Shown: in pieces, positions 1,914 to 10,560 of the stretch
How the letters are laid out: the number at the start of each line of letters is the position of its first letter
How positions within the stretch are numbered: position 1 is the stretch's first letter
DNA from: a virus
Lineage: Duplodnaviria > Heunggongvirae > Uroviricota > Caudoviricetes
Length of the DNA: 13,090 nt
Strand: one strand, 5' to 3'
IMG/VR virus record: IMGVR_UViG_3300029504_000072
The notes under the pieces: generated by a model
The model's input: only the letters and a program-made list of their open reading frames with translations
What the model was told of the DNA's origin: nothing
Databases searched by the model: none
Translations under genes and position numbers: made by a program

Positions 1914-3108
<1,195 letters not shown>

Positions 3109-3112
3109 CTAA
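3109..3112. repeat. IS5 target-site duplication, right copy (CTAA)
   Basis: CTAA directly after the right IS5 inverted repeat, matching 1910-1913. Confidence 0.9.
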
Positions 3113-3173
3113 CATTTTAAATGTTGGAATCGCAACGTAGTTATTATCATATAACAGCTTGTTTCCTGATTTA

Positions 3174-3201
3174 GCCAGCCTCCCCAAAGGCTGGTTTTTT
3201 T
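3174..3201 (+). terminator. Rho-independent terminator (plus-strand orientation)
   Basis: Stem CCAGCC (3175-3180) / GGCTGG (3189-3194), 8-nt loop, then a T-run at 3195-3201. Lies between IS5 and the blc stop. Confidence 0.55.
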
Positions 3202-3229
3202 CTAATAAGTATCATTTCGGGTGGGGATT

Positions 3230-3754
3230 TTATTGTTTAACCCATAATAGTTCATTGACATTGAATCCCAACTTTTGAGCGGTACGCACATAGTCTGCTT
3301 TTACATTATCTGGAATAGTTTGGGTCCTTGCCAGAATCCATAGGTATTCTCTGTTCGGACCACTGACAAGAGCATACTTATACTCATCATCCAGCTTGAT
3401 TACATTATAGCCACCATAGAAGGGGCCAAAAAACGAAACTTTCAACGCTGCAGTTTTAGTATCTCCAGTAAAGTATGCTTTACCTTCGCTCTCGCTCCAT
3501 TTGTTTTTCGTTGGATCGTATCCACGGTTAAGTACGCGAATCCCTCCGTCGTTCCGTTTTTCATAAGTAGCGCTGACTTGTTCCAGACCACGTTCGAACC
3601 AGTTCTCGAGGCGAGCTATTTCATACCATTTTCCGAGGTAGCGGTTGGCGTCAAAATTTGTAATCGGCTGCACACCTTTAGGTGGTGTCGGGGCCTTACA
3701 TGCTATAAGAGTGAAAGAGAGTGCAATGCCAGTCAACACAGGCCATAACTTCAT
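3230..3754 (-). CDS. blc: Outer-membrane lipoprotein, bacterial lipocalin Blc family (divergent paralog)
   Basis: 174-aa ORF with lipoprotein signal and lipobox (MKLWPVLTGIALSFTLIAC); lipocalin motifs NFDANRYLGKWYEIARL and KVSFFGPFYGGYNVI...YLWILAR; roughly half of positions match E. coli Blc as I recall it. Confidence 0.85.
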   Translation of the reverse strand: MKLWPVLTGIALSFTLIACKAPTPPKGVQPITNFDANRYLGKWYEIARLENWFERGLEQVSATYEKRNDGGIRVLNRGYDPTKNKWSESEGKAYFTGDTKTAALKVSFFGPFYGGYNVIKLDDEYKYALVSGPNREYLWILARTQTIPDNVKADYVRTAQKLGFNVNELLWVKQ

Positions 3755-3946
3755 AATAAATCCTGTACTTTTGATAGTTGAGAGTAAGTATGAAAGATAG
3801 ATGAGTACGACCGATCACTTAAAGAACTTTCCTACTATATTAGGAATAGTCAATAACAGAAAAATTGTCAGTGATGAAGCCAGAAAGGCAATTTAGTCCG
3901 TGCACTACAAAGTTTATGTGTTAATGAATTAGTCAAGGGGGAGGAA

Positions 3947-4906
3947 ATGATAAAAAAACCTGTGATTGGGATCAGCGGTTGTTTGGGCGGTTCTGCTGTT
4001 CGTTTTGATGGTGGTCACAAAAGAGATGACTTTTTAATGGACAAATTAGTGGAATGGGTAACATTCAGACCAGTATGTCCGGAAATGGCTATAGGGCTGC
4101 CAGTTCCGCGTCCTGCTCTACGACTTGTGCGCTCGAAGCAAGGAAATATACGGATGTGTTTCAGCCACGACCAGAATGAGGATGTGACAGAGAGAATGAC
4201 AGAGTTTAGTCGTTCTTATATGGACAAATTAAAGGATGTATCGGGGTTTGTGGTTTGTGCTAAATCTCCCAGCTGTGGCATGGAGCGCGTGCGTGTCTAT
4301 GATGAAAATGGTAATCGAGGTCGTAAAGATGGAGTGGGACTATTTACGAGCACTTTGATGGAAAAGTTTTCCTGGCTACCGGTTGAAGAGGATGGGCGAT
4401 TACATGATCCAGTGCTTCGTGAGAATTTTATTGAAAGAGTTTTTGCTTTGCATGAGCTCAATCATCTTTACAAGGAGAAATTATCAAGAAGAGAGTTATT
4501 AGCTTTTCATAGTCGTTATAAGCTTCAGTTGTTGGCGCATAGCCAGGCAGGCTATAAAGATATGGGACCATTTGTGGCTGCAATACACGAGTGGGCGGAC
4601 CTTGAATCATACTTTGAGGTGTATCGTGATAATCTGATGGCGATTCTCAGAAAACCAGCATCACGTAAAAATCACACGAATGTGCTGATGCATATACAGG
4701 GGTATTTTAGTAATTACTTAAGTACACGCCAGCGTAAAGAGTTGAGCGAGGTTATACTTAACTATCGCTTTGGCACATTGCCTCTTCTTGCGCCGTTGAC
4801 TCTGCTGAAGCATTATCTGGGTGAGTATCCTAATGATTACTTGCTTACACAGAATTACTTCGATCCCTATCCGGAAGAACTGGCTCTAAGACTGATGGTG
4901 AATTAA
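3947..4906 (+). CDS. DUF523/DUF1722 two-domain protein (TudS-like Fe-S domain fused to YbgA-like domain)
   Basis: 319-aa ORF; strong RBS GGGGGAGGAA before the ATG. N-terminal motifs GISGCLGG...VRFDGGHK, VCPE and SPSCG match the Cys-containing DUF523 signature; the C-terminal half resembles YbgA-type DUF1722. Confidence 0.75.
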   Translation: MIKKPVIGISGCLGGSAVRFDGGHKRDDFLMDKLVEWVTFRPVCPEMAIGLPVPRPALRLVRSKQGNIRMCFSHDQNEDVTERMTEFSRSYMDKLKDVSGFVVCAKSPSCGMERVRVYDENGNRGRKDGVGLFTSTLMEKFSWLPVEEDGRLHDPVLRENFIERVFALHELNHLYKEKLSRRELLAFHSRYKLQLLAHSQAGYKDMGPFVAAIHEWADLESYFEVYRDNLMAILRKPASRKNHTNVLMHIQGYFSNYLSTRQRKELSEVILNYRFGTLPLLAPLTLLKHYLGEYPNDYLLTQNYFDPYPEELALRLMVN

Positions 4907-5312
4907 CTGTATGCGATATCATCTGAAAGTGATGAGTTCCTGTATGCAGGATATTTACAATCGTAAAAACTACGCTATGATGCTCATAGTGTCAGTTTTT
5001 ATAAAAATCCTGTTCACGCTAAAGAAAACATTGAGATGCAATTTAATGTTGGTAAACATACCAGCCCCAAACGATTTTATTCAATCTGTTTTTATATGAA
5101 GATATTTCAAGTGAATATTAAGAGTATATAATATTATTATTGCACGCAGCTATTATAATATAACAGATTAGTTTAATGATTTGTTTTTTGTGAGTTAAAC
5201 ACATGGTTTTATAGTTGTGATGCAATGAGATTTTCCTTATTGTTGAACTGGCGAATATTGATTTTCCACCTATACTTACCTGGTGTAACCCCAATGATAT
5301 CAGGTGGATAAT

Positions 5313-6026
5313 ATGCCATACATATGTTCTATCATTTTGGTGTTGAACTCGTTTGGTGTCCGAATTGGTAAAGAAGATATTTTGTTTAAAAAAGGAAATG
5401 CTGTCCTCATTGAATACAATTTAAAAGATCTTTTTTCGTCAAATACAGATCATCTAATGATCGTAGATGTTGAGGAGAAAACAGTTAATGATTTCTTTAA
5501 AAACTACACACTCTCACCTTTTTCTGTAAGAAGGTTTTATCCGTCATACTTGATAGTAGAATGTGAAGATTTTTCATTGTTAAGGAACTTGGTTGCATGC
5601 TTGAATTGTGATAGCAAAACCGTGGATGTAGTTAGAAATCAAATATCACTTGCATGTCTTGCTGTCTTATCTTCAGAGAAAATAGTGCAAAGTTTTTTGT
5701 TCGGAAGTCTTAATAGCTTAGGTTGTAAAGTTAAGGCTATTATTCACTCGGATATCTCAGCGTCATGGAGACTTTGTGATATATCTTCAAGATTATATAT
5801 GAGCGAGAGTTTGTTAAAAAGAAAATTAAAAGACGAAGGATTATCGTTTAGTAAATTAATTCTTGAAGAACGAATGATGATGGCGCAAAGATTATTGATC
5901 TACAGTAACCATACTGTCGGCAAGGTGGCGGGAATATGCGGGTATGACAATGCATCATATTTTGTAAGTGTTTTTAGAGGATATTTTGGTGTGCCTCCGC
6001 ACCAATATTTATCAAGATTTTCTTAG
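5313..6026 (+). CDS. AraC/XylS-family transcriptional regulator, AppY-like
   Basis: C-terminal AraC HTH (LLKRKLKDEGLSFSKLILEERMMMAQRLL...KVAGICGYDNASYFVSVFRGYFGVPPHQY); N-terminus MPYICSIILVL resembles AppY-type regulators. I place the start at ATG 5313 (RBS AGGTGG at 5302-5307) rather than the track's GTG 5304. AT-rich gene and upstream region. Confidence 0.8.
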   Translation: MPYICSIILVLNSFGVRIGKEDILFKKGNAVLIEYNLKDLFSSNTDHLMIVDVEEKTVNDFFKNYTLSPFSVRRFYPSYLIVECEDFSLLRNLVACLNCDSKTVDVVRNQISLACLAVLSSEKIVQSFLFGSLNSLGCKVKAIIHSDISASWRLCDISSRLYMSESLLKRKLKDEGLSFSKLILEERMMMAQRLLIYSNHTVGKVAGICGYDNASYFVSVFRGYFGVPPHQYLSRFS

Positions 6027-6094
6027 AAGATATGATGTGATGGCATTTTATAAAGTTATTTTTTGAAGTGTAAGATTATACGATATTTTTAGCT

Positions 6095-6126
6095 ACGCCA
6101 GAATAATTGCTGGCGTTTTTCTTTTT
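6095..6126 (+). terminator. Rho-independent terminator downstream of the AraC gene, upstream of the holin (possible tR'-like)
   Basis: Perfect 7-bp stem ACGCCAG / CTGGCGT (6095-6101, 6110-6116), 8-nt loop, then TTTTCTTTTT at 6117-6126. Confidence 0.65.
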
Positions 6127-6216
6127 GAATAGATGTTCGGGCCTTACGCTAATGTAACTTCTTTCCTTCTTCGAACCAAACCGTGTACACCATCCGTTAT
6201 CTGCGGAGGTGAGGCT

Positions 6217-6432
6217 ATGAAATCCATGGATAAGTTAACAACGGGCATCGCCTACAGCACCTCTGCAGGCAGTGCTGGCTACTGGTTTTTACAGTTGCTC
6301 GATAAAGTCACACCCTCACAGTGGGCGGCAATAGGTGTATTGGGTAGTCTGGTATTTGGCATGCTGACGTATCTGACAAACCTTTATTTCAAGATTAAAG
6401 AAGACAGGCGTAAGGCTGCGAGAGGAGAGTAA
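6217..6432 (+). CDS. Class II holin (phage 21 S-type pinholin) with dual-start motif
   Basis: 71-aa product [31 protein letters not shown]...[13 protein letters not shown]; two TM segments and a charged C-terminus; Met1 and Met4 starts (antiholin/holin); RBS GGAGGTGAGG at 6205-6214. The track's 99-aa ORF from 6133 carries an N-terminal extension with no RBS. Confidence 0.85.
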
Positions 6433-6436
6433 GACA

Positions 6437-6655
6437 ATGACTAAAAACTATGAACTGATTGTGAAAGGGACCCGCAATTTTGAGAATAAAGTTACGGTAA
6501 TCTTAACGTTACAGGACAAAGAACGTTTTGCCGGTGAAATTTTTGATCTGAACATCAACCTTGAGCGACTTGAAGGAGCTGGTTTGGATTATTATGAAGT
6601 TACTGCGGTAAAACATGCCAAACAGTTCTTGAGAGATTTGGCTGAAAAAATATAA
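6437..6655 (+). CDS. Hypothetical 72-aa protein between holin and endolysin (positional equivalent of Qin ydfR)
   Basis: RBS AGGAG at 6423-6427; soluble, no TM. Occupies the slot where Qin-like prophages carry a small gene between S and R; homology not verifiable here. Confidence 0.5.
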   Translation: MTKNYELIVKGTRNFENKVTVILTLQDKERFAGEIFDLNINLERLEGAGLDYYEVTAVKHAKQFLRDLAEKI

Positions 6656-6673
6656 AGCGGCATTACTGCCGCT
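6656..6673. terminator. Bidirectional hairpin between convergent small genes
   Basis: Perfect 7-bp stem AGCGGCA / TGCCGCT with 4-nt loop TTAC, starting 1 nt after the 6437-6655 stop. The A-rich plus-strand flank at 6644-6655 gives a U-tract for the minus-strand transcript. Confidence 0.5.
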
Positions 6674-6766
6674 TAGAAATTATTCAATGTCTGGTAGCTT
6701 ATCAAAGATTTCGGATACTCTTATATTTGTCATATAAGCAAATTGAGATTCTGCCAGCTCTTTGGG

Positions 6767-6976
6767 TTATTTTCCCGCTTTTTCTGAGCCAAAAATTGTT
6801 TCTAAAGCCAGCATGTTATATTTGAGAACCTCTTCTCGAGTTTTACCTGATAATTTTGCGGTAACAGCAATATAAAAAGGCAACACTTTATCCAGAAGGT
6901 CGTTGTGTTTTGTCAGTTGTGGTAATACCACATCAAGTTGCTTACTGATTGGTTTGAATGGATCTATACCGTTCAT
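6767..6976 (-). CDS. Hypothetical 69-aa protein, antisense to the lysis operon
   Basis: Minus-strand ORF MNGIDPFKPISKQLDVVLPQ...FGSEKAGK; AGGGA 8 nt upstream of its ATG (spacing long); ends at the shared hairpin. No family recognised. Confidence 0.45.
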   Translation of the reverse strand: MNGIDPFKPISKQLDVVLPQLTKHNDLLDKVLPFYIAVTAKLSGKTREEVLKYNMLALETIFGSEKAGK

Positions 6977-7080
6977 AGTTACATTCCCTTATCAGAGGTA
7001 ATCAGCCATCCCCCCTTTATTACACACGCCAGTATCCACCACTGACGGGCTGAGTGCTTAACATATCTAGAGATTAGAAA

Positions 7081-7099
7081 CTGATAAATCCTGATAAAT
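7081..7099. repeat. Tandem direct repeat CTGATAAAT(C)CTGATAAAT just upstream of the endolysin start
   Basis: CTGATAAAT at 7081-7089 and 7091-7099; a third copy of CTGATAA in inverted orientation (TTATCAG) at 6991-6997. All fall in the divergent intergenic region 6977-7103. Confidence 0.4.
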
Positions 7100-7103
7100 A
7101 TCC

Positions 7104-8131
<1,028 letters not shown>

Positions 8132-8314
8132 ATTAATATTAAATCGGATTATTTTTAGCGCTGAATGTGAAATTTAAATAAAAAGGACTCTTCCATGAGT
8201 CAAAATCCTTGAAATCTTAAGGGTAAGATAAAAGGTCATTAGACAGAATGACACGTTTTATTAATAAATAAAGCTATTGTTTCATTCGTGTGTTTTTCTT
8301 TACAAAAGTAATCC

Positions 8315-8391
8315 TTGCTATGGTTGGTTAATCATGCGTTAATGGTGTTCTGGTTTGTTACAAAATTATCTGAAGCAGTCATTGTTATAAT
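8315..8391 (+). promoter_or_regulatory. Candidate promoter region for the cold-shock gene
   Basis: cspA-like -35 TTGCTA (8315-8320) with 17-bp spacer to -10 GTTAAT (8338-8343), preceded by an AT-rich UP-like tract; alternatively an extended -10 TGTTATAAT at 8383-8391. Either gives a long (about 95-145 nt) 5' UTR. Confidence 0.35.
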
Positions 8392-8494
8392 TTTATTATT
8401 TGTACCTCTTGAGATTTCCTTGTTGGTTTTTCTCTCTGATATTTTTTTTCGGACCATTCTGCCCAAGGGCTAACTTCTTCAAAAGGTAATAATG

Positions 8495-8707
8495 ATGTCT
8501 AACAAAATGACTGGTTTAGTGAAATGGTTTAACCCTGAAAAAGGTTTTGGTTTCATCACGCCGAAAGATGGTAGCAAAGATGTGTTTGTCCATTTCTCAG
8601 CTATTCAGAGCAACGATTTCAAAACGTTAACTGAGAATCAGGAAGTAGAATTTGGTATTGAGAACGGACCTAAAGGCCCCGCGGCTGTTCATGTTGTGGC
8701 ACTTTGA
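8495..8707 (+). CDS. cspI: CspA-family cold-shock protein (CspI-like, 70 aa)
   Basis: Cold-shock domain with RNP1/RNP2 motifs ([16 protein letters not shown]); protein [20 protein letters not shown]...; RBS AAGG at 8483-8486. Start taken at the second ATG (8495), not the track's 8492. Synteny with rz, gnsB and terminase fits the Qin cspI context. Confidence 0.9.
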
Positions 8708-8906
8708 GGTAGAAAATATTACAAACCATATTCACTTTAGATGCCCGTGTTGCCATGGTTCTCAGTATAGAACATCATCTTTTGATGTTTCTGACAGGAA
8801 TCCTTTCGGGGCAAAATGTATCTTTTGTAAATCAATGATGATTACATTTGATAATATTTCACAATACTTAAATGTTAGCCGTCTGTCGTTAGATTTAAGA
8901 AAGTGA
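8691..8906 (+). CDS. Hypothetical Zn-ribbon small protein (Ogr/Delta-like Cys spacing), overlaps the cspI 3' end
   Basis: 71-aa ORF from ATG 8691 (17-nt overlap with cspI); four-Cys motif CPCC-x21-CIFC; followed directly by a strong terminator. No good RBS, so possibly translationally coupled or not a gene. Confidence 0.3.
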
Positions 8907-8913
8907 AAATGAA

Positions 8914-8934
8914 GGCTCCTTCGGGAGCTTTTTT
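8914..8934 (+). terminator. Rho-independent terminator with UUCG tetraloop
   Basis: Stem GGCTCC / GGAGCT (one G-U pair), loop TTCG, then a T-run through 8934. Confidence 0.7.
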
Positions 8935-8978
8935 GCTTAGTGTCTAGTCGATGGATACTCACATATTACGGTAACATT

Positions 8979-9209
8979 ATGAAAAAAATAATAGTTTTTT
9001 TTAACTCTGAACCAGCAATGGTAGTGCCAGTGATGACCGGAGTTAACACCATCATGCGTGAATATCCAAATGGCGAAACAACACACCTCACTGTAATGGC
9101 TGCAGGGTTTCCATCTCTGACCGGAGATCATAAAGTCATTTATGTAGCAGCGGATCGACATGTAACTTCAGAAGAAATTCTGGAAGCAGCAATGAGACTC
9201 TTGAATTGA
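8979..9209 (+). CDS. Hypothetical 76-aa protein between cspI and gnsB (YnfN/YmcE-position gene)
   Basis: ATG at 8979 (the track's ORF starts at GTG 8940); product MKKIIVFFNSEPAMVVPVMTG...; assigned by position only. Confidence 0.45.
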   Translation: MKKIIVFFNSEPAMVVPVMTGVNTIMREYPNGETTHLTVMAAGFPSLTGDHKVIYVAADRHVTSEEILEAAMRLLN

Positions 9210-9303
9210 TTTGATTCTAATGCATTGATAATAAATGATAATCATCTTTATCTGTTTGTGTGAAATTTAGACCGTCGTATGTTGATTATTGCGATGTTTC
9301 ATC

Positions 9304-9332
9304 TTATCTTTTATACGCTTGCTCCATATAAT
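9304..9332 (+). promoter_or_regulatory. Candidate sigma70 promoter upstream of gnsB-like gene
   Basis: Consensus -10 TATAAT at 9327-9332, about 50 nt upstream of the start codon; -35 is weak (TTATCT). Confidence 0.3.
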
Positions 9333-9381
9333 TGACACTACTGTGTACCAGGAAAGTCATAACAGACTAAAAGAGGAAATG

Positions 9382-9555
9382 ATGAACATTGAAGAGTTAA
9401 AAACAAAAACAGAAGCAGATATTTCTGAATATATAACAAAAAAAATCATTGAGCTTAAGAAAAAGACCGGGAAAGAAGTTACCAGTATCCAGTTTACTGC
9501 ACGGGAAAAAATGACTGGTCTTGAAAGCTATGATATCAAGATTGATTTAATCTAG
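9382..9555 (+). CDS. gnsB: GnsA/GnsB-family small protein (57 aa)
   Basis: MNIEELKTKTEADISEYITKKIIELKKKTGKEVTSIQFTAREKMTGLESYDIKIDLI; RBS AAGAGGA at 9371-9377. True start is the internal ATG (9382, or 9379), not the track's 9289. Confidence 0.8.
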   Translation: MNIEELKTKTEADISEYITKKIIELKKKTGKEVTSIQFTAREKMTGLESYDIKIDLI

Positions 9556-9615
9556 TCTGTTTAGTATTAGCATCAATTTCTCATCAGATGCTATTCAACA
9601 ATACAAATTACCCAT

Positions 9616-9640
9616 AAACCTCGTTTTTACGGGGTTTTGT
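9616..9640 (+). terminator. Putative intrinsic terminator after the gnsB-like gene
   Basis: Stem ACCTCG / CGGGGT (one G-U pair), loop TTTTTA, then TTTTGTTATATTT. Confidence 0.4.
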
Positions 9641-9848
9641 TATATTTAAACATTACCGAATAGGTATAAATCTCGATTGTCGATGGTATTGGTTGTGTGA
9701 CAATACCTAGTCTTTCCGGTATGCCTGAAGAGAATACAAACGACAGATTATGTAAGGGAAACGCGCTGAATCTTTAACTCTTTCATGCTGAGTGATTTGA
9801 CGTTATATTTTTAGCCGTAAGTGAAGAGCAAACGCATGGAGCGACATA

Positions 9849-10055
9849 ATGCATAAAGATCAATACACTGATGCCCCCTCCCAGGAGCAGGTTCGTGTAA
9901 AAACTATGCTTAATAGCACCATTTCGATGGGTTACCCGGATGTTGTAATTGCATGTATAGAACATCAAGTGTCTCTGGAAGCATTCAGGGCAATTGAGGC
10001 CGCGTTAGTAAAGCACGATAAGAATACGAAGGATTATTCCCTGGTGGTTGACTGA
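9849..10055 (+). CDS. Hypothetical 68-aa protein
   Basis: GGAG at 9838-9841, 7 nt before the ATG; product [40 protein letters not shown]...; no family recognised. Confidence 0.45.
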
Positions 10056-10399
10056 TCACCATAACTGCTAACCATTCTGACCATTTCACAAGTGACAGAG
10101 TCAATATCGTATTCTGTCACTGTCAGGCTAATACAGCAATGCAATTCAACTACAGCAATGCCTCGTATTTAGGTGAATTTACAATATCGTCCAGTTCGGA
10201 TGCCGGCTGCATTTCTGAAGATAAGGCATTTCGGTTCTCGTATTTTCCCCTCATGCTCGTCAGTCCTGCGCGTAGTAAGAGACAGGACACTCACACTAAT
10301 TTGTGTGGGCATGCTGTGATGTCCTTCTGAATTATCCCCATGCCATTATGTAAAGCTCTGTTACAGATGCTCGTCACGGTTGTCAGGCTGTCGGGTCCT

Positions 10400-10560
10400 C
10401 CCAGTGGGGGGCCCTGCCACGGGGCGGGAGCGTCGCGGAAAAAGGCTAGTTTTTGAAATTTTATTCGTCATCACCACTACTGTAATTGATTGGTATTACA
10501 GTGGTTTTATTTTTATGGTGTCGATTCTGATTGTTTTTTGTTCATCGCTAACACCGTTTG
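10400..10560 (+). other. Lambda-like cohesive-end site (cos), predicted cosN overhang GGGCGGGAGCGT at 10422-10433
   Basis: GC-rich CACGGGGCGGGAGCGTCGCGG in an AT-rich context matches lambda ACGGGGCGGCGACCTCGCGGG at 16 of 21 positions; downstream TTGAAATTTTATTCGTCAT echoes lambda cosB; 8-bp inverted repeat ACTGTAAT/ATTACAGT at 10479-10502; sits directly upstream of the terminase small-subunit gene as in lambda. Confidence 0.6.

Follow-up and report, generated by a model that had tools for sequence, protein, structure and literature searches.

Sequence analysis of an AraC/XylS-type regulator gene, related to those for PatE and PsrB, in a Qin-like lambdoid prophage of Escherichia coli

Phage-borne regulators of acid resistance

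AppY, PatE and PsrA/B are the clearest cases of phages that are wired into the host stress network, where they raise the acid tolerance of Escherichia coli. Entry into stationary phase induces PatE, an activator of gadE, gadBC and hdeAB; PsrB, which binds at the promoters of hdeA and gadE, increases acid resistance (PMC10877973). RpoS and H-NS both govern AppY, which acts directly as an activator of gadE and gadY (PMC10057817). Activation of acid-resistance genes of the gadE/hdeA type is common to PatE, PsrB and AppY, and patE and appY are both responsive to RpoS and to the stationary phase (PMC10877973, PMC10057817).

For comparison with the first two of these proteins we used E. coli O157:H7 EDL933, in which the records are unnamed and the labels were assigned by location. 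Probable PatE is the only AraC-family gene of prophage CP-933H (z0321; NZ_CP008957.1, 309101-309844; 247 aa), and probable PsrB is the sole AraC-like gene in the part of the OI-57 region that was examined (L021:25274-25987; 237 aa). PsrB and PsrA are secretion regulators encoded by O157:H7 prophages. PsrA is given in reviews as z1789 of OI-50, but Sakai Sp6 and EDL933 CP-933N show no AraC-like gene, either in the annotation or by tblastn.

Here we describe a further regulator gene, found in a 13,090 nt stretch of phage DNA (the window; IMG/VR record IMGVR_UViG_3300029504_000072). The gene belongs to a known type, of which it is an unremarkable member, and is related to the phage-borne acid-resistance activators. 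Its assignment to the AraC/XylS family, and to an insert with a predicted promoter and terminator of its own in the Q-to-holin slot of a Qin-like lambdoid E. coli prophage, is very highly probable. The features of the locus are listed in Table 1.

Table 1. Features of the window at and around the regulator gene
Feature	Coordinates	Strand	Basis
IS5-family element; transposase 1982-2962; CTAA on both flanks	1914..3104	+	Pfam DDE_Tnp_1
Candidate tR' of the late operon; 9-bp stem and T7, + strand only	3173..3196	+	Position, conservation
Blc-like lipocalin lipoprotein gene; co-resident cargo	3230..3754	-	Pfam Lipocalin_2, 7.5e-43
YbgA-family gene; DUF523/2-thiouracil-desulfurase-like domain and DUF1722; cargo	3947..4906	+	PF04463, 5.8e-40; PF08349, 9.4e-40
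Distal promoter-like site TTTACA-16-TATGAT, directly after the ybgA-like stop	4954..4981	+	Best consensus match of the region, 10/12
Very AT-rich indel, ~88 nt; TATAAT at 5127 and 5154; imperfect palindrome 5131-5143/5149-5161	5127..5213	.	Alignments
Proposed proximal promoter; -35 CTGGCG (5248-5253), 17-nt spacer, -10 TATACT (5271-5276)	5248..5276	+	Conservation, consensus
Shine-Dalgarno sequence AGGTGG, 5 nt 5' of ATG 5313	5302..5307	+	Read from sequence
araC-type regulator gene, 237 aa	5313..6026	+	Pfam domains, AlphaFold model, RefSeq-identical protein
Predicted intrinsic terminator of the araC insert, ACGCCAG-AATAATTG-CTGGCGT then T-tract	6095..6126	+	Fold, conservation
S21-type holin gene (EssD), dual start MKSM; first lysis gene past the terminator	6217..6432	+	Pfam Phage_holin_2_1, 6.1e-34

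Genomic context and distribution

The regulator gene is preceded by two cargo genes, blc and ybgA, and is followed by the lysis genes, beginning with a holin gene at the position equivalent to that of essD in RefSeq. The IS5 copy sits where Q and everything 5' of Q would be: similarity between the window and its intact relative L001 begins at window position 3109, 35 nt past Q, and strain S171-1 has the same IS5 insertion site with Q retained. The DNA to the left of the window IS5 matches different locations in other genomes.

The arrangement Q-blc-ybgA-araC-holin is seen again in L001-L005, L012, L020 and L102, and relatives of the regulator are found in this slot with three Q families that are unrelated to one another (PF06530, PF03589 and PF06323). 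The contents of the slot vary, from nmpC in DLP12 to araC alone in L019 and blc-ybgA-araC in the window. Close alleles are present on sequenced temperate phages, namely IdasGreatGrand (86% identity) and the Lambda_ev series and 1H12 (76%), and a 1.3-kb region containing the regulator gene is matched in 974 of 5426 complete E. coli genomes. Strains S171-1 and 2018-06-4CC, for example, encode WP_024168019.1, the RefSeq protein identical to the regulator, and K-12 does not have the gene. Among species-representative genomes outside Escherichia only chromosomal paralogues with no more than 34% identity were found, besides one 85% match; the contig carrying this single match is probably mis-binned. 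The insert has two of the characteristics of a moron, an autonomous accessory insert in a phage operon, being present or absent among related phages and distinct in composition. A moron is also flanked by its own promoter and a factor-independent terminator; here the terminator is conserved, and the promoter is a candidate by conservation and consensus. The orthologous group of the regulator is unnamed, and the literature searched yielded no study of it, nor anything on the accession of the protein or on the blc-ybgA-araC cassette.

The regulator gene and its product

The ORF can be opened at 5304 or 5313 and ends with a TAG codon at 6024-6026. The best start is ATG 5313, since the Shine-Dalgarno sequence is suitably placed 5 nt upstream of it and the alternative GTG 5304 falls within that same Shine-Dalgarno sequence. 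All of the homologues align from this methionine (MxxxCS), the Shine-Dalgarno sequence is nearly invariant in the family (GGTGG in 8 of 10 aligned leaders) and the protein is identical, start codon included, to RefSeq WP_024168019.1; the re-assignment of the start to ATG 5313 in the first-pass annotation is thus borne out by spacing, homologue alignment and RefSeq alike. That annotation had also proposed a prophage-borne AraC regulator, and this too stands. Pfam HTH_18 is matched at residues 158-234 (2.9e-16; 59.9 bits, cutoff 33.6) and HTH_AraC is matched as well (5.9e-11; 42.6 bits, cutoff 26.6), so that the product has the hallmark of the AraC/XylS family, a C-terminal domain, roughly 100 residues long, that holds a pair of helix-turn-helix motifs. 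The gene is intact, and across alleles spanning 47% to 86% identity dN/dS is about 0.2 (0.12-0.27), which excludes a pseudogene and indicates purifying selection on the protein.

Of the characterized relatives, probable PatE is the closest, with 47% identity (N-terminal domain 34%, DNA-binding domain 63%), and there is 37% identity to probable PsrB (55% over the DNA-binding domain), 33% to GadW (46%), 30% to AppY (over 238 residues, full-length, E = 4e-41; 39% in the DNA-binding and 22% in the N-terminal domain) and 29% to YdeO over the full length, with 41% identity to GadX over the DNA-binding domain. Full-length alignments and the N-terminal MxxxCS motif are common to the regulator, AppY, GadW, YdeO and GadX, and as judged by sequence it is in the same AraC/XylS subfamily as these four. 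The equivalog thresholds for YdeO and GadX are not reached: the top NCBIfam match, to YdeO over the full length, scores 112.2 bits against a cutoff of 348, and the GadX score is 89.9 against 500. The first-pass label of AppY-like is loose, being accurate as to subfamily but not as to orthology, given the low identity and the different prophage position of appY, and the PatE- and PsrB-like proteins are closer. In a neighbour-joining tree (no bootstrap) the regulator is found with PatE-like and PsrB-like sequences, adjoining AppY, GadW, YdeO and GadX, and AppY groups with GadW, apart from the window regulator. The regulator can be included in a PatE/Psr group, since it is borne on a lambdoid prophage and is closer to PatE and Psr than to the chromosomal paralogues. 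Its alleles at 76-100% identity form clusters of their own, and it is an orthologous group distinct from PatE.

When solved structures are compared by sequence, the GadX DNA-binding domain, CsvR, Rns and ToxT match best. An AlphaFold model (pLDDT 87.5, pTM 0.82) has an N-terminal beta/alpha domain at approximately residues 1-134 and a C-terminal double helix-turn-helix domain at approximately 135-235. In Foldseek searches the model aligns over its full length with CsvR, Rns and ToxT (E = 4e-11 to 2e-7, about 250 aligned columns), and its DNA-binding domain superposes on that of GadX (3mkl) at 1.3-1.6 A with a TM score of 0.86-0.89 on the target, and also on those of MarA and AraC. The protein is thus predicted to combine the two-domain architecture of Rns and ToxT with a double helix-turn-helix resembling that of GadX.

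Upstream DNA and promoter

The DNA upstream of the gene is AT-rich, as had been noted at first pass, with a G+C content of 31.0% in 4907-5312 as compared to 33.6% in the regulator gene, 44.5% in the whole window and 47-52% in the lysis genes; the regulator region (29-34% G+C) is also AT-rich relative to the host genome. The accompanying description of this DNA as promoter-dense is not confirmed, since 11 two-hexamer promoter-like sites are seen in 2900-6700 where 10.8 are expected, and the excess of -10-like hexamers in 5100-5312 (8 versus 4.1 expected, with 3% of shuffles having as many) is mild. Five of these eight hexamers are within the AT-rich segment 5127-5159, and the apparent promoter density mostly reflects AT richness. 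The TATAAT hexamers singled out in the first-pass annotation are present but are not conserved, and belong to an indel that is missing in L002 and L004 and present in L012.

The proposed proximal promoter appears to be conserved family-wide, and would give a 5' UTR of about 30 nt. TATACT is at an equal distance from the ATG in eight family members, with TATAAT at that place in the PsrB-like gene, and a promoter scan independently calls the homologous site in L019 (TTGGCA-18-TATACT, 10/12) and in L002 (ATGGCA-17-TATACT, 9/12). The standard scan does not call the site in the window, and the -35 of the window allele is weak (3 of 6 consensus matches). Promoters of sigma-38 have a CTAtacT motif at -10 and lack a distinctive -35 (PMC3923258, PMC5650638). 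The proposed promoter has both of the features taken to mark a sigma-S-type site, a CTATACT with C at -13 (5270-5276) and a degenerate -35; CTATACT occurs only twice in the whole window. Only partial matches to the AppY binding motif ATGSCWGM can be seen by eye at the regulator's own -35.

The distal promoter-like site is kept in L002 and L004 and is missing from relatives without ybgA. It overlaps a hairpin (4972-4992) that was considered as the ybgA terminator and rejected, having only three G-C pairs and a poor T-tail; because the hairpin is so weak, read-through from ybgA into the downstream DNA is possible. A small ORF in this segment (4911-5099, 62 aa) is not regarded as a gene, since it has no Pfam match, is unannotated in RefSeq and has frame-breaking indels relative to L002. 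The high-affinity H-NS motif TCGATAAATT has no match at two or fewer mismatches in 4907-5312, and there is no enrichment of the motif in the window (12 matches versus 19 expected).

Hairpins pairing with the ribosome-binding site (AGGUGG) can be drawn in several homologues, and the window has an 11-nt inverted repeat (5261-5271/5302-5312). A leader RNA that hides the ribosome-binding site was nevertheless rejected: fold energies are like those of shuffled sequences (z of -0.1 to -1.65), the pairing partner is conserved in close alleles only, and the left arm is upstream of the predicted transcription start. No known RNA families were detected in 2900-6500 beyond a sub-threshold match on the 3173-3196 hairpin.

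Terminators

The first-pass annotation placed a strong terminator just before the holin gene, at the position of tR' in a lambdoid late operon. The terminator is credible, with a 7-bp stem (6095-6101/6110-6116; 5 G-C pairs), an 8-nt loop and a tail TTTTCTTTTT running to 6126, and it ends 90 nt 5' of the holin gene; its predicted strength is moderate rather than strong (-11.3 kcal/mol, z = -2.06). It is kept in L002 and L012, is represented in L019 by a shifted stem (CCAGCA-TTAT-TGCTGG followed by T8) and is absent in L018. The identification with tR' is not supported, since tR' directly follows Q and is the intrinsic terminator met first from the late promoter, and this one is about 2.9 kb 3' of the Q stop position in intact relatives, with 3173-3196 coming earlier. 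The latter hairpin is about 100 nt 3' of the Q stop in L001 and is kept in L002 and in phage IdasGreatGrand, and the order in L019 is Q, terminator, promoter, araC, terminator, holin. From this conserved position past Q, and from the L019 terminator between Q and araC, 3173-3196 appears to be the better candidate for tR', and 6095-6126 the insert's own terminator.

Proposed function and alternatives

We favour the reading that the gene encodes a functional AraC/XylS activator and is a lysogenic-conversion insert acting on host acid-resistance promoters, for which our blended estimate is about 0.6. In a lysogen the gene would be transcribed from the conserved proximal promoter, and CTATACT with a weak -35 predicts that stationary phase or stress would induce it; H-NS is a plausible ligand of the AT-rich DNA upstream. 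The protein would then bind AT-rich sites at host promoters and activate them. The likeliest targets are gadE and hdeA, because PatE, PsrB and AppY all control them; this choice is tentative, at a little under even odds, and the targets could differ since identity to PatE is modest, particularly in the N-terminal domain. The promoter, its sigma-S dependence, H-NS silencing and the target genes are all predicted from homology or consensus. The terminator 6095-6126 would keep regulator transcription out of the lysis genes, and where the phage is intact, polymerase that starts at pR' and is modified by Q would pass through this terminator as well as the candidate tR' (3173-3196). In the window, with Q replaced by IS5, only local promoters can drive the regulator.

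An unlikely alternative is that the gene is intact but is cargo kept silent by H-NS in every normal condition, with no present role in the host, and persists only by hitch-hiking on a widespread prophage. The very low G+C content (29-31% upstream and 34% in the gene), the weak -35 and the loss of Q from the late operon of the window would all suit such a history, but a dN/dS of about 0.2 shows that the protein is selected, and the promoter, Shine-Dalgarno sequence and terminator are kept across lineages whose flanks are otherwise unalignable. Rather improbable, too, is a regulator that acts on the phage or on neighbouring cargo (blc and ybgA, late or lysis genes, or the lysis-lysogeny balance), possibly being made early from the late transcript and acting mainly while the phage grows lytically. 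The family is found directly 3' of Q and its terminator and 5' of the holin gene with three Q types, so that Q-dependent late transcription must cross the regulator gene, and the window-type gene is always linked to blc and ybgA. Yet its own conserved promoter and terminator are the layout expected for expression in a lysogen, L018 and L019 have the regulator without blc or ybgA, and PatE-like and P0020-type relatives are at prophage ends, far from late genes; moreover, the characterized relatives all act on host genes, and purifying selection is seen in defective prophages lacking Q, such as that in the window.

The occurrence of the clade behind three unrelated Q families also raises the quite remote prospect that, rather than being random cargo, it is specialized for the first place in the late transcription unit, made from Q-antiterminated transcripts as well and reprogramming the host in lytic growth besides lysogeny; stress, envelope and motility genes or lysis timing, for example, would then be targets. 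On this view the 11-nt repeat of window-type alleles could cause translation to differ between long read-through and short promoter-proximal transcripts. Least probable is that the regulator is the equivalent of AppY and its terminator the tR' of the late operon. The full-length alignment to AppY, the shared broad subfamily and the presence of a terminator just 5' of the holin gene are compatible with this, but identity to AppY is no higher than that to chromosomal GadW, appY is at the far end of DLP12 and not between Q and holin, the conserved terminator following Q is better placed as tR', in L019 a terminator of its own separates Q from araC, and L018 has none after araC.

On the favoured reading, of a host-directed activator expressed in the lysogen, the biology to be expected is incremental rather than surprising. 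If gadE and hdeA are also activated by this protein, a sizeable share of commensal and pathogenic strains would have an extra, phage-supplied input into acid resistance, and motility or biofilm formation may be affected too. With the corrected promoter and start codon the regulator is easy to test.

Comparison with known systems

The best full-length structural matches, Rns, CsvR and ToxT, have the same beta/alpha domain and double helix-turn-helix as the regulator model, although they share only 18-20% identity with it and differ in inter-domain orientation (TM 0.41-0.45, rmsd about 15 A). GadW, GadX and YdeO correspond in subfamily and architecture, but their genes are chromosomal rather than phage-borne. 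AppY is prophage-encoded and of the same subfamily, with the MxxxCS N-terminus, a SESL(L/I)KK(K/R)L recognition-helix motif and AT-rich upstream DNA in common with the window regulator; its gene differs in lying past the tail-fibre genes, next to ompT at the right end of DLP12, and in not sharing the proximal promoter. Probable PsrB is, like the window protein, a 237 aa AraC/XylS regulator, encoded in a lambdoid prophage with a late-antiterminator-like gene (DUF1133) on one side and the lysis genes on the other, and with a -10 (TATAAT) at the homologous distance from its start, although tRNA genes, TerB and a sialate esterase intervene before the holin gene. The probable PatE gene is at the end of a prophage remnant, outside the Q-holin slot. 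Like the gene described here, it encodes a prophage-borne AraC/XylS protein of the same size and architecture that aligns over the full length and belongs to the same tree clade, and it has the conserved proximal promoter (in its case TTGGCA-18-TATACT) and Shine-Dalgarno sequence.

The regulator gene and its relatives

The regulator is an AraC/XylS protein of the activator type, intact and under selection, and is encoded by a terminator-bounded insert in the slot between Q (the late antiterminator gene) and the holin gene; we put the probability of this assignment of family and insert at about 0.95. The gene product matches the Pfam profiles HTH_18 (2.9e-16) and HTH_AraC (5.9e-11), both over the cutoffs, as expected of the AraC regulator named in the first-pass annotation. 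The re-assignment of its start to ATG 5313 was also right: the Shine–Dalgarno sequence AGGTGG (5302-5307) is spaced 5 nt from this ATG and contains the alternative GTG 5304, homologues down to 35 % identity all align from this methionine (motif MxxxCS), and RefSeq WP_024168019.1 starts here, with the 240-aa GTG form present in some older GenBank entries. The gene is not a pseudogene, being full length relative to every homologue, with pairwise dN/dS against six alleles of 0.12–0.27 wherever dS could be estimated (it was saturated in comparisons with L019, a locus in which the regulator is alone in the slot). A confident AlphaFold model (13 sequences; pLDDT 87.5, pTM 0.82) has a beta/alpha domain at the N terminus and a DNA-binding domain of seven helices at the C terminus; with Foldseek, the full-length model matched CsvR, Rns and ToxT (E = 4e-11 to 2e-7) and the DNA-binding domain matched GadX (3mkl) at 1.3–1.6 Å.

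Features in and around the regulator insert
Feature	Coordinates	Strand	Remarks
IS5-family element	1914-3104		CTAA flanks 1910-1913 and 3105-3108; 34-35 nt past where Q ends in intact relatives; stands in place of Q and every early gene
Likely tR' for this type of Q	3173-3196	+	9-bp stem, T7; conserved; ~100 nt downstream of Q stop in intact relatives
Blc-like outer-membrane lipocalin	3230-3754	-	Cargo travelling with araC
YbgA-family protein, 319 aa	3947-4906	+	DUF523 (2-thiouracil-desulfurase-like) fused to DUF1722; cargo travelling with araC
Distal promoter-like site	4954-4981	+	TTTACA-16-TATGAT; conserved among alleles with ybgA
Very AT-rich indel, ~88 nt	5127-5213		Imperfect palindrome 5131-5143 / 5149-5161; present in window and L012, missing from 76 % alleles
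Proposed proximal promoter	5248-5253, 5271-5276	+	CTGGCG, 17-nt spacer, TATACT; conservation and consensus
Regulator ORF	5304 (GTG) or 5313 (ATG) to TAG 6024-6026	+	HTH_18 and HTH_AraC domains
araC terminator	6095-6126	+	ACGCCAG-AATAATTG-CTGGCGT then TTTTCTTTTT; -11.3 kcal/mol, z = -2.06
S21-type holin	6217-6432	+	Dual start Met-Lys-Ser-Met (ATG 6217 and 6226)

The description 'AppY-like' is true only at the subfamily level and not as a statement of closest relationship, since a neighbour-joining tree (no bootstrap) clusters the regulator with PatE-like and PsrB-like sequences and pairs AppY with GadW. Among NCBIfam models YdeO scores best, with an end-to-end alignment, yet its 112 bits fall below the cutoff of 348; GadX scores 90 versus 500. 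Far closer relatives form clusters at 98, 85, 76, 60 and 50 % identity and are annotated only generically, and the regulator represents a separate, uncharacterised orthologous group inside the phage-borne PatE/Psr branch. Probable PatE (247 aa) is the sole AraC-family gene product of the thrW prophage remnant CP-933H of O157:H7 EDL933, where the literature places patE (z0321); probable PsrB (237 aa, AraC-like) is encoded at L021:25274-25987, between a DUF1133 antiterminator-like gene and a tRNA/esterase/holin block in the OI-57 region of the same strain. PsrA is identified in two reviews as z1789 of OI-50; no AraC-like gene is present in current annotations of Sakai Sp6 (L016) and EDL933 CP-933N (L017), nor is one found by tblastn of Sakai Sp6. 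Throughout the PatE/PsrB/AppY-containing clade the motif of the first recognition helix, SESLLK(R/K)KL, hardly varies, and by alignment it includes the position of AppY K170, mutation of which is reported to abolish DNA binding.

Identity of the regulator to known proteins (K-12 proteins taken from the annotated K-12 genome)
Protein	Full length	DNA-binding domain
Probable PatE (EDL933, CP-933H)	47 %	63 % (measured with PatE-like P0018, 98 % identical to the EDL933 protein)
Probable PsrB (EDL933, OI-57 region)	37 %	55 %
GadW	33 %	46 %
AppY	30 %	39 %
YdeO	29 %	41 %
GadX	no end-to-end alignment	41 % (101 residues)
YbcM	no end-to-end alignment	23-25 %

Genome context and distribution

The window covers part of an E. 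coli prophage of the lambdoid, Qin-like type. Over 3109-10455 it shares 99.8 % identity with an intact prophage in strain 2018-06-4CC, where the order is Q, Blc-like lipocalin (opposite strand), YbgA-family gene (DUF523 + DUF1722), 'helix-turn-helix domain-containing protein', S21-type holin EssD, DUF1327 gene, lysozyme and Rz. Similarity to intact relatives begins at 3109, 35 nt past the Q stop; the DNA to the left of the IS5 element, an integrase island, has a different location in other genomes (~1.4 Mb away in related strains). The IS5 is at the identical site in four RefSeq genomes, and S171-1 still has its Q next to a simple insertion of the element. Because the window's left junction is in no complete genome of the collection, it either arose later by IS-mediated rearrangement or was joined in assembly. 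A mechanically listed holin start at 6133 is probably too long. Farther right, the prophage cold-shock gene cspI (coding region 8492-8707) and its leader match the cspA thermoregulator RNA family RF01766 full length (8337-8753, + strand; 112 bits versus a gathering score of 78). The segment 10455-11200 is without similarity to L001, the intact near-identical locus, and from 11201 similarity returns at only 85 %, a pattern that points to a mosaic joint close to the packaging genes.

Members of the window clade directly follow a Q gene, which belongs to one of three families in Pfam that are unrelated to each other: PF06530 (the window type and L002, the 76 % allele), PF03589 (L018) or PF06323 (L019). 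PatE-like copies are instead at prophage ends. L002 and L019 have a called S21-type holin gene farther downstream; the L018 contig ends earlier, its downstream DNA reading into the same holin start. The regulator is carried by the sequenced temperate phages IdasGreatGrand (86 %), the Lambda_ev series and 1H12 (76 %), and mEp332, PhiR70_1 and ev099 (46 %). The 1.3-kb region is matched in 974 of 5426 complete E. coli genomes, always chromosomally, and species-representative genomes outside Escherichia gave chromosomal paralogues only. An 85 % identical copy on a 3.2-kb contig binned as 'Candidatus Nanosynbacter' (L022; JARKOR010000151.1) is almost certainly on mis-binned E. coli or coliphage DNA; another contig of that bin has a YdeO-like gene.

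Terminators and upstream region

The first-pass annotation had put a strong terminator after the regulator, at the place of tR', the late-operon terminator just downstream of Q. An intrinsic terminator at 6095-6126, 68 nt past the stop codon and ending 90 nt short of holin ATG 6217, is credible from its sequence, but the tR' place is taken by the conserved hairpin ~100 nt after the Q stop, and the IS5 is inserted between the Q site and that hairpin. The araC terminator is unchanged in L002 and has a one-base deletion in the 3′ arm in L012, another relative; L019 has a re-registered hairpin at the equivalent place (CCAGCA-TTAT-TGCTGG plus T8), suggesting that terminator function is selected for, and L018 has no terminator hairpin after araC. 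The L019 order, Q, terminator (10-bp stem), proximal promoter, araC, terminator and holin, has the appearance of an autonomous insert downstream of tR'.

The upstream DNA is AT-rich as first described (31 % G+C for 4907-5312, falling to 25.5 % around 5000-5199, versus 44.5 % for the window), and is 'promoter-dense' only in a mild excess of minus-10-like hexamers (8 in 5100-5312 versus 4.1 expected, with 3 % of shuffles reaching 8); two-hexamer sites in a consensus scan number 11 versus 10.8 expected. Five of the eight hexamers, including both perfect TATAATs (5127 and 5154), lie in the AT-rich indel absent from the 76 % allele, whose palindrome may represent either an operator or no more than low-complexity DNA. 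A better candidate promoter is the TATACT found ~36 nt before the ATG, at equal distance, in eight family members (47–100 % protein identity; upstream DNA otherwise unalignable), with (T/A/C)TGG(C/T)(A/G) 17–18 nt before it and an invariant Shine–Dalgarno sequence after; the PsrB-like gene has TATAAT instead. The consensus scan independently found this site as the top match in L019 (TTGGCA-18-TATACT, 10/12) and as a match in L002. A preceding C makes the window −10 CTATACT, a heptamer occurring only twice in the 13 kb on both strands and the sigma-38 −10 consensus, sigma-38 promoters being without a distinctive −35 (PMC3923258; PMC5650638). The leader would thus be short (~30 nt), from a stress or stationary-phase promoter, which fits reports that patE is induced in stationary phase and that appY is under RpoS and H-NS control; the AT-rich DNA would be a regulatory region and not a transcribed leader. 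The distal site could give a long-leader transcript, and ybgA read-through into the regulator may occur. The promoter spacer (5261-5271) and the Shine–Dalgarno sequence (5302-5312) are the two arms of an 11-nt inverted repeat with 91 % complementarity. Both arms are the same in the window and in the 76 % allele while the 30 nt between them diverge; the fold energies are not significant.

Proposed role

With Q absent in cis, only local promoters can drive the regulator in the window. By analogy with its relatives, we suggest that it would be expressed in the lysogen from the sigma-S-type promoter, possibly against H-NS repression, and would bind AT-rich sites at host promoters. The first candidate targets would be gadE, hdeA and gadY, because PatE, PsrB and AppY, which span the whole clade, are reported to converge on them; we regard acid-resistance targets as tentative, at a little short of an even chance. 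The terminator would shield the lysis genes from regulator transcription, and in an intact phage Q-modified polymerase would be expected to read through it.

Rival readings are a phage-directed or lytic-phase role, to be set beside the position directly after Q and upstream of the holin and beside the candidate promoter and terminator that would make the insert autonomous, silent cargo, to be set beside the dN/dS values, and the original AppY/tR' interpretation. In the original interpretation the observation was real, the gene call correct and the kind of regulator right, and it is in the closest relative, the promoter elements that matter and tR' that our reading departs from it. The protein is no surprise: it is a new, unstudied member of the known class of prophage regulators that includes PatE, PsrB and AppY, and merits a routine experiment.
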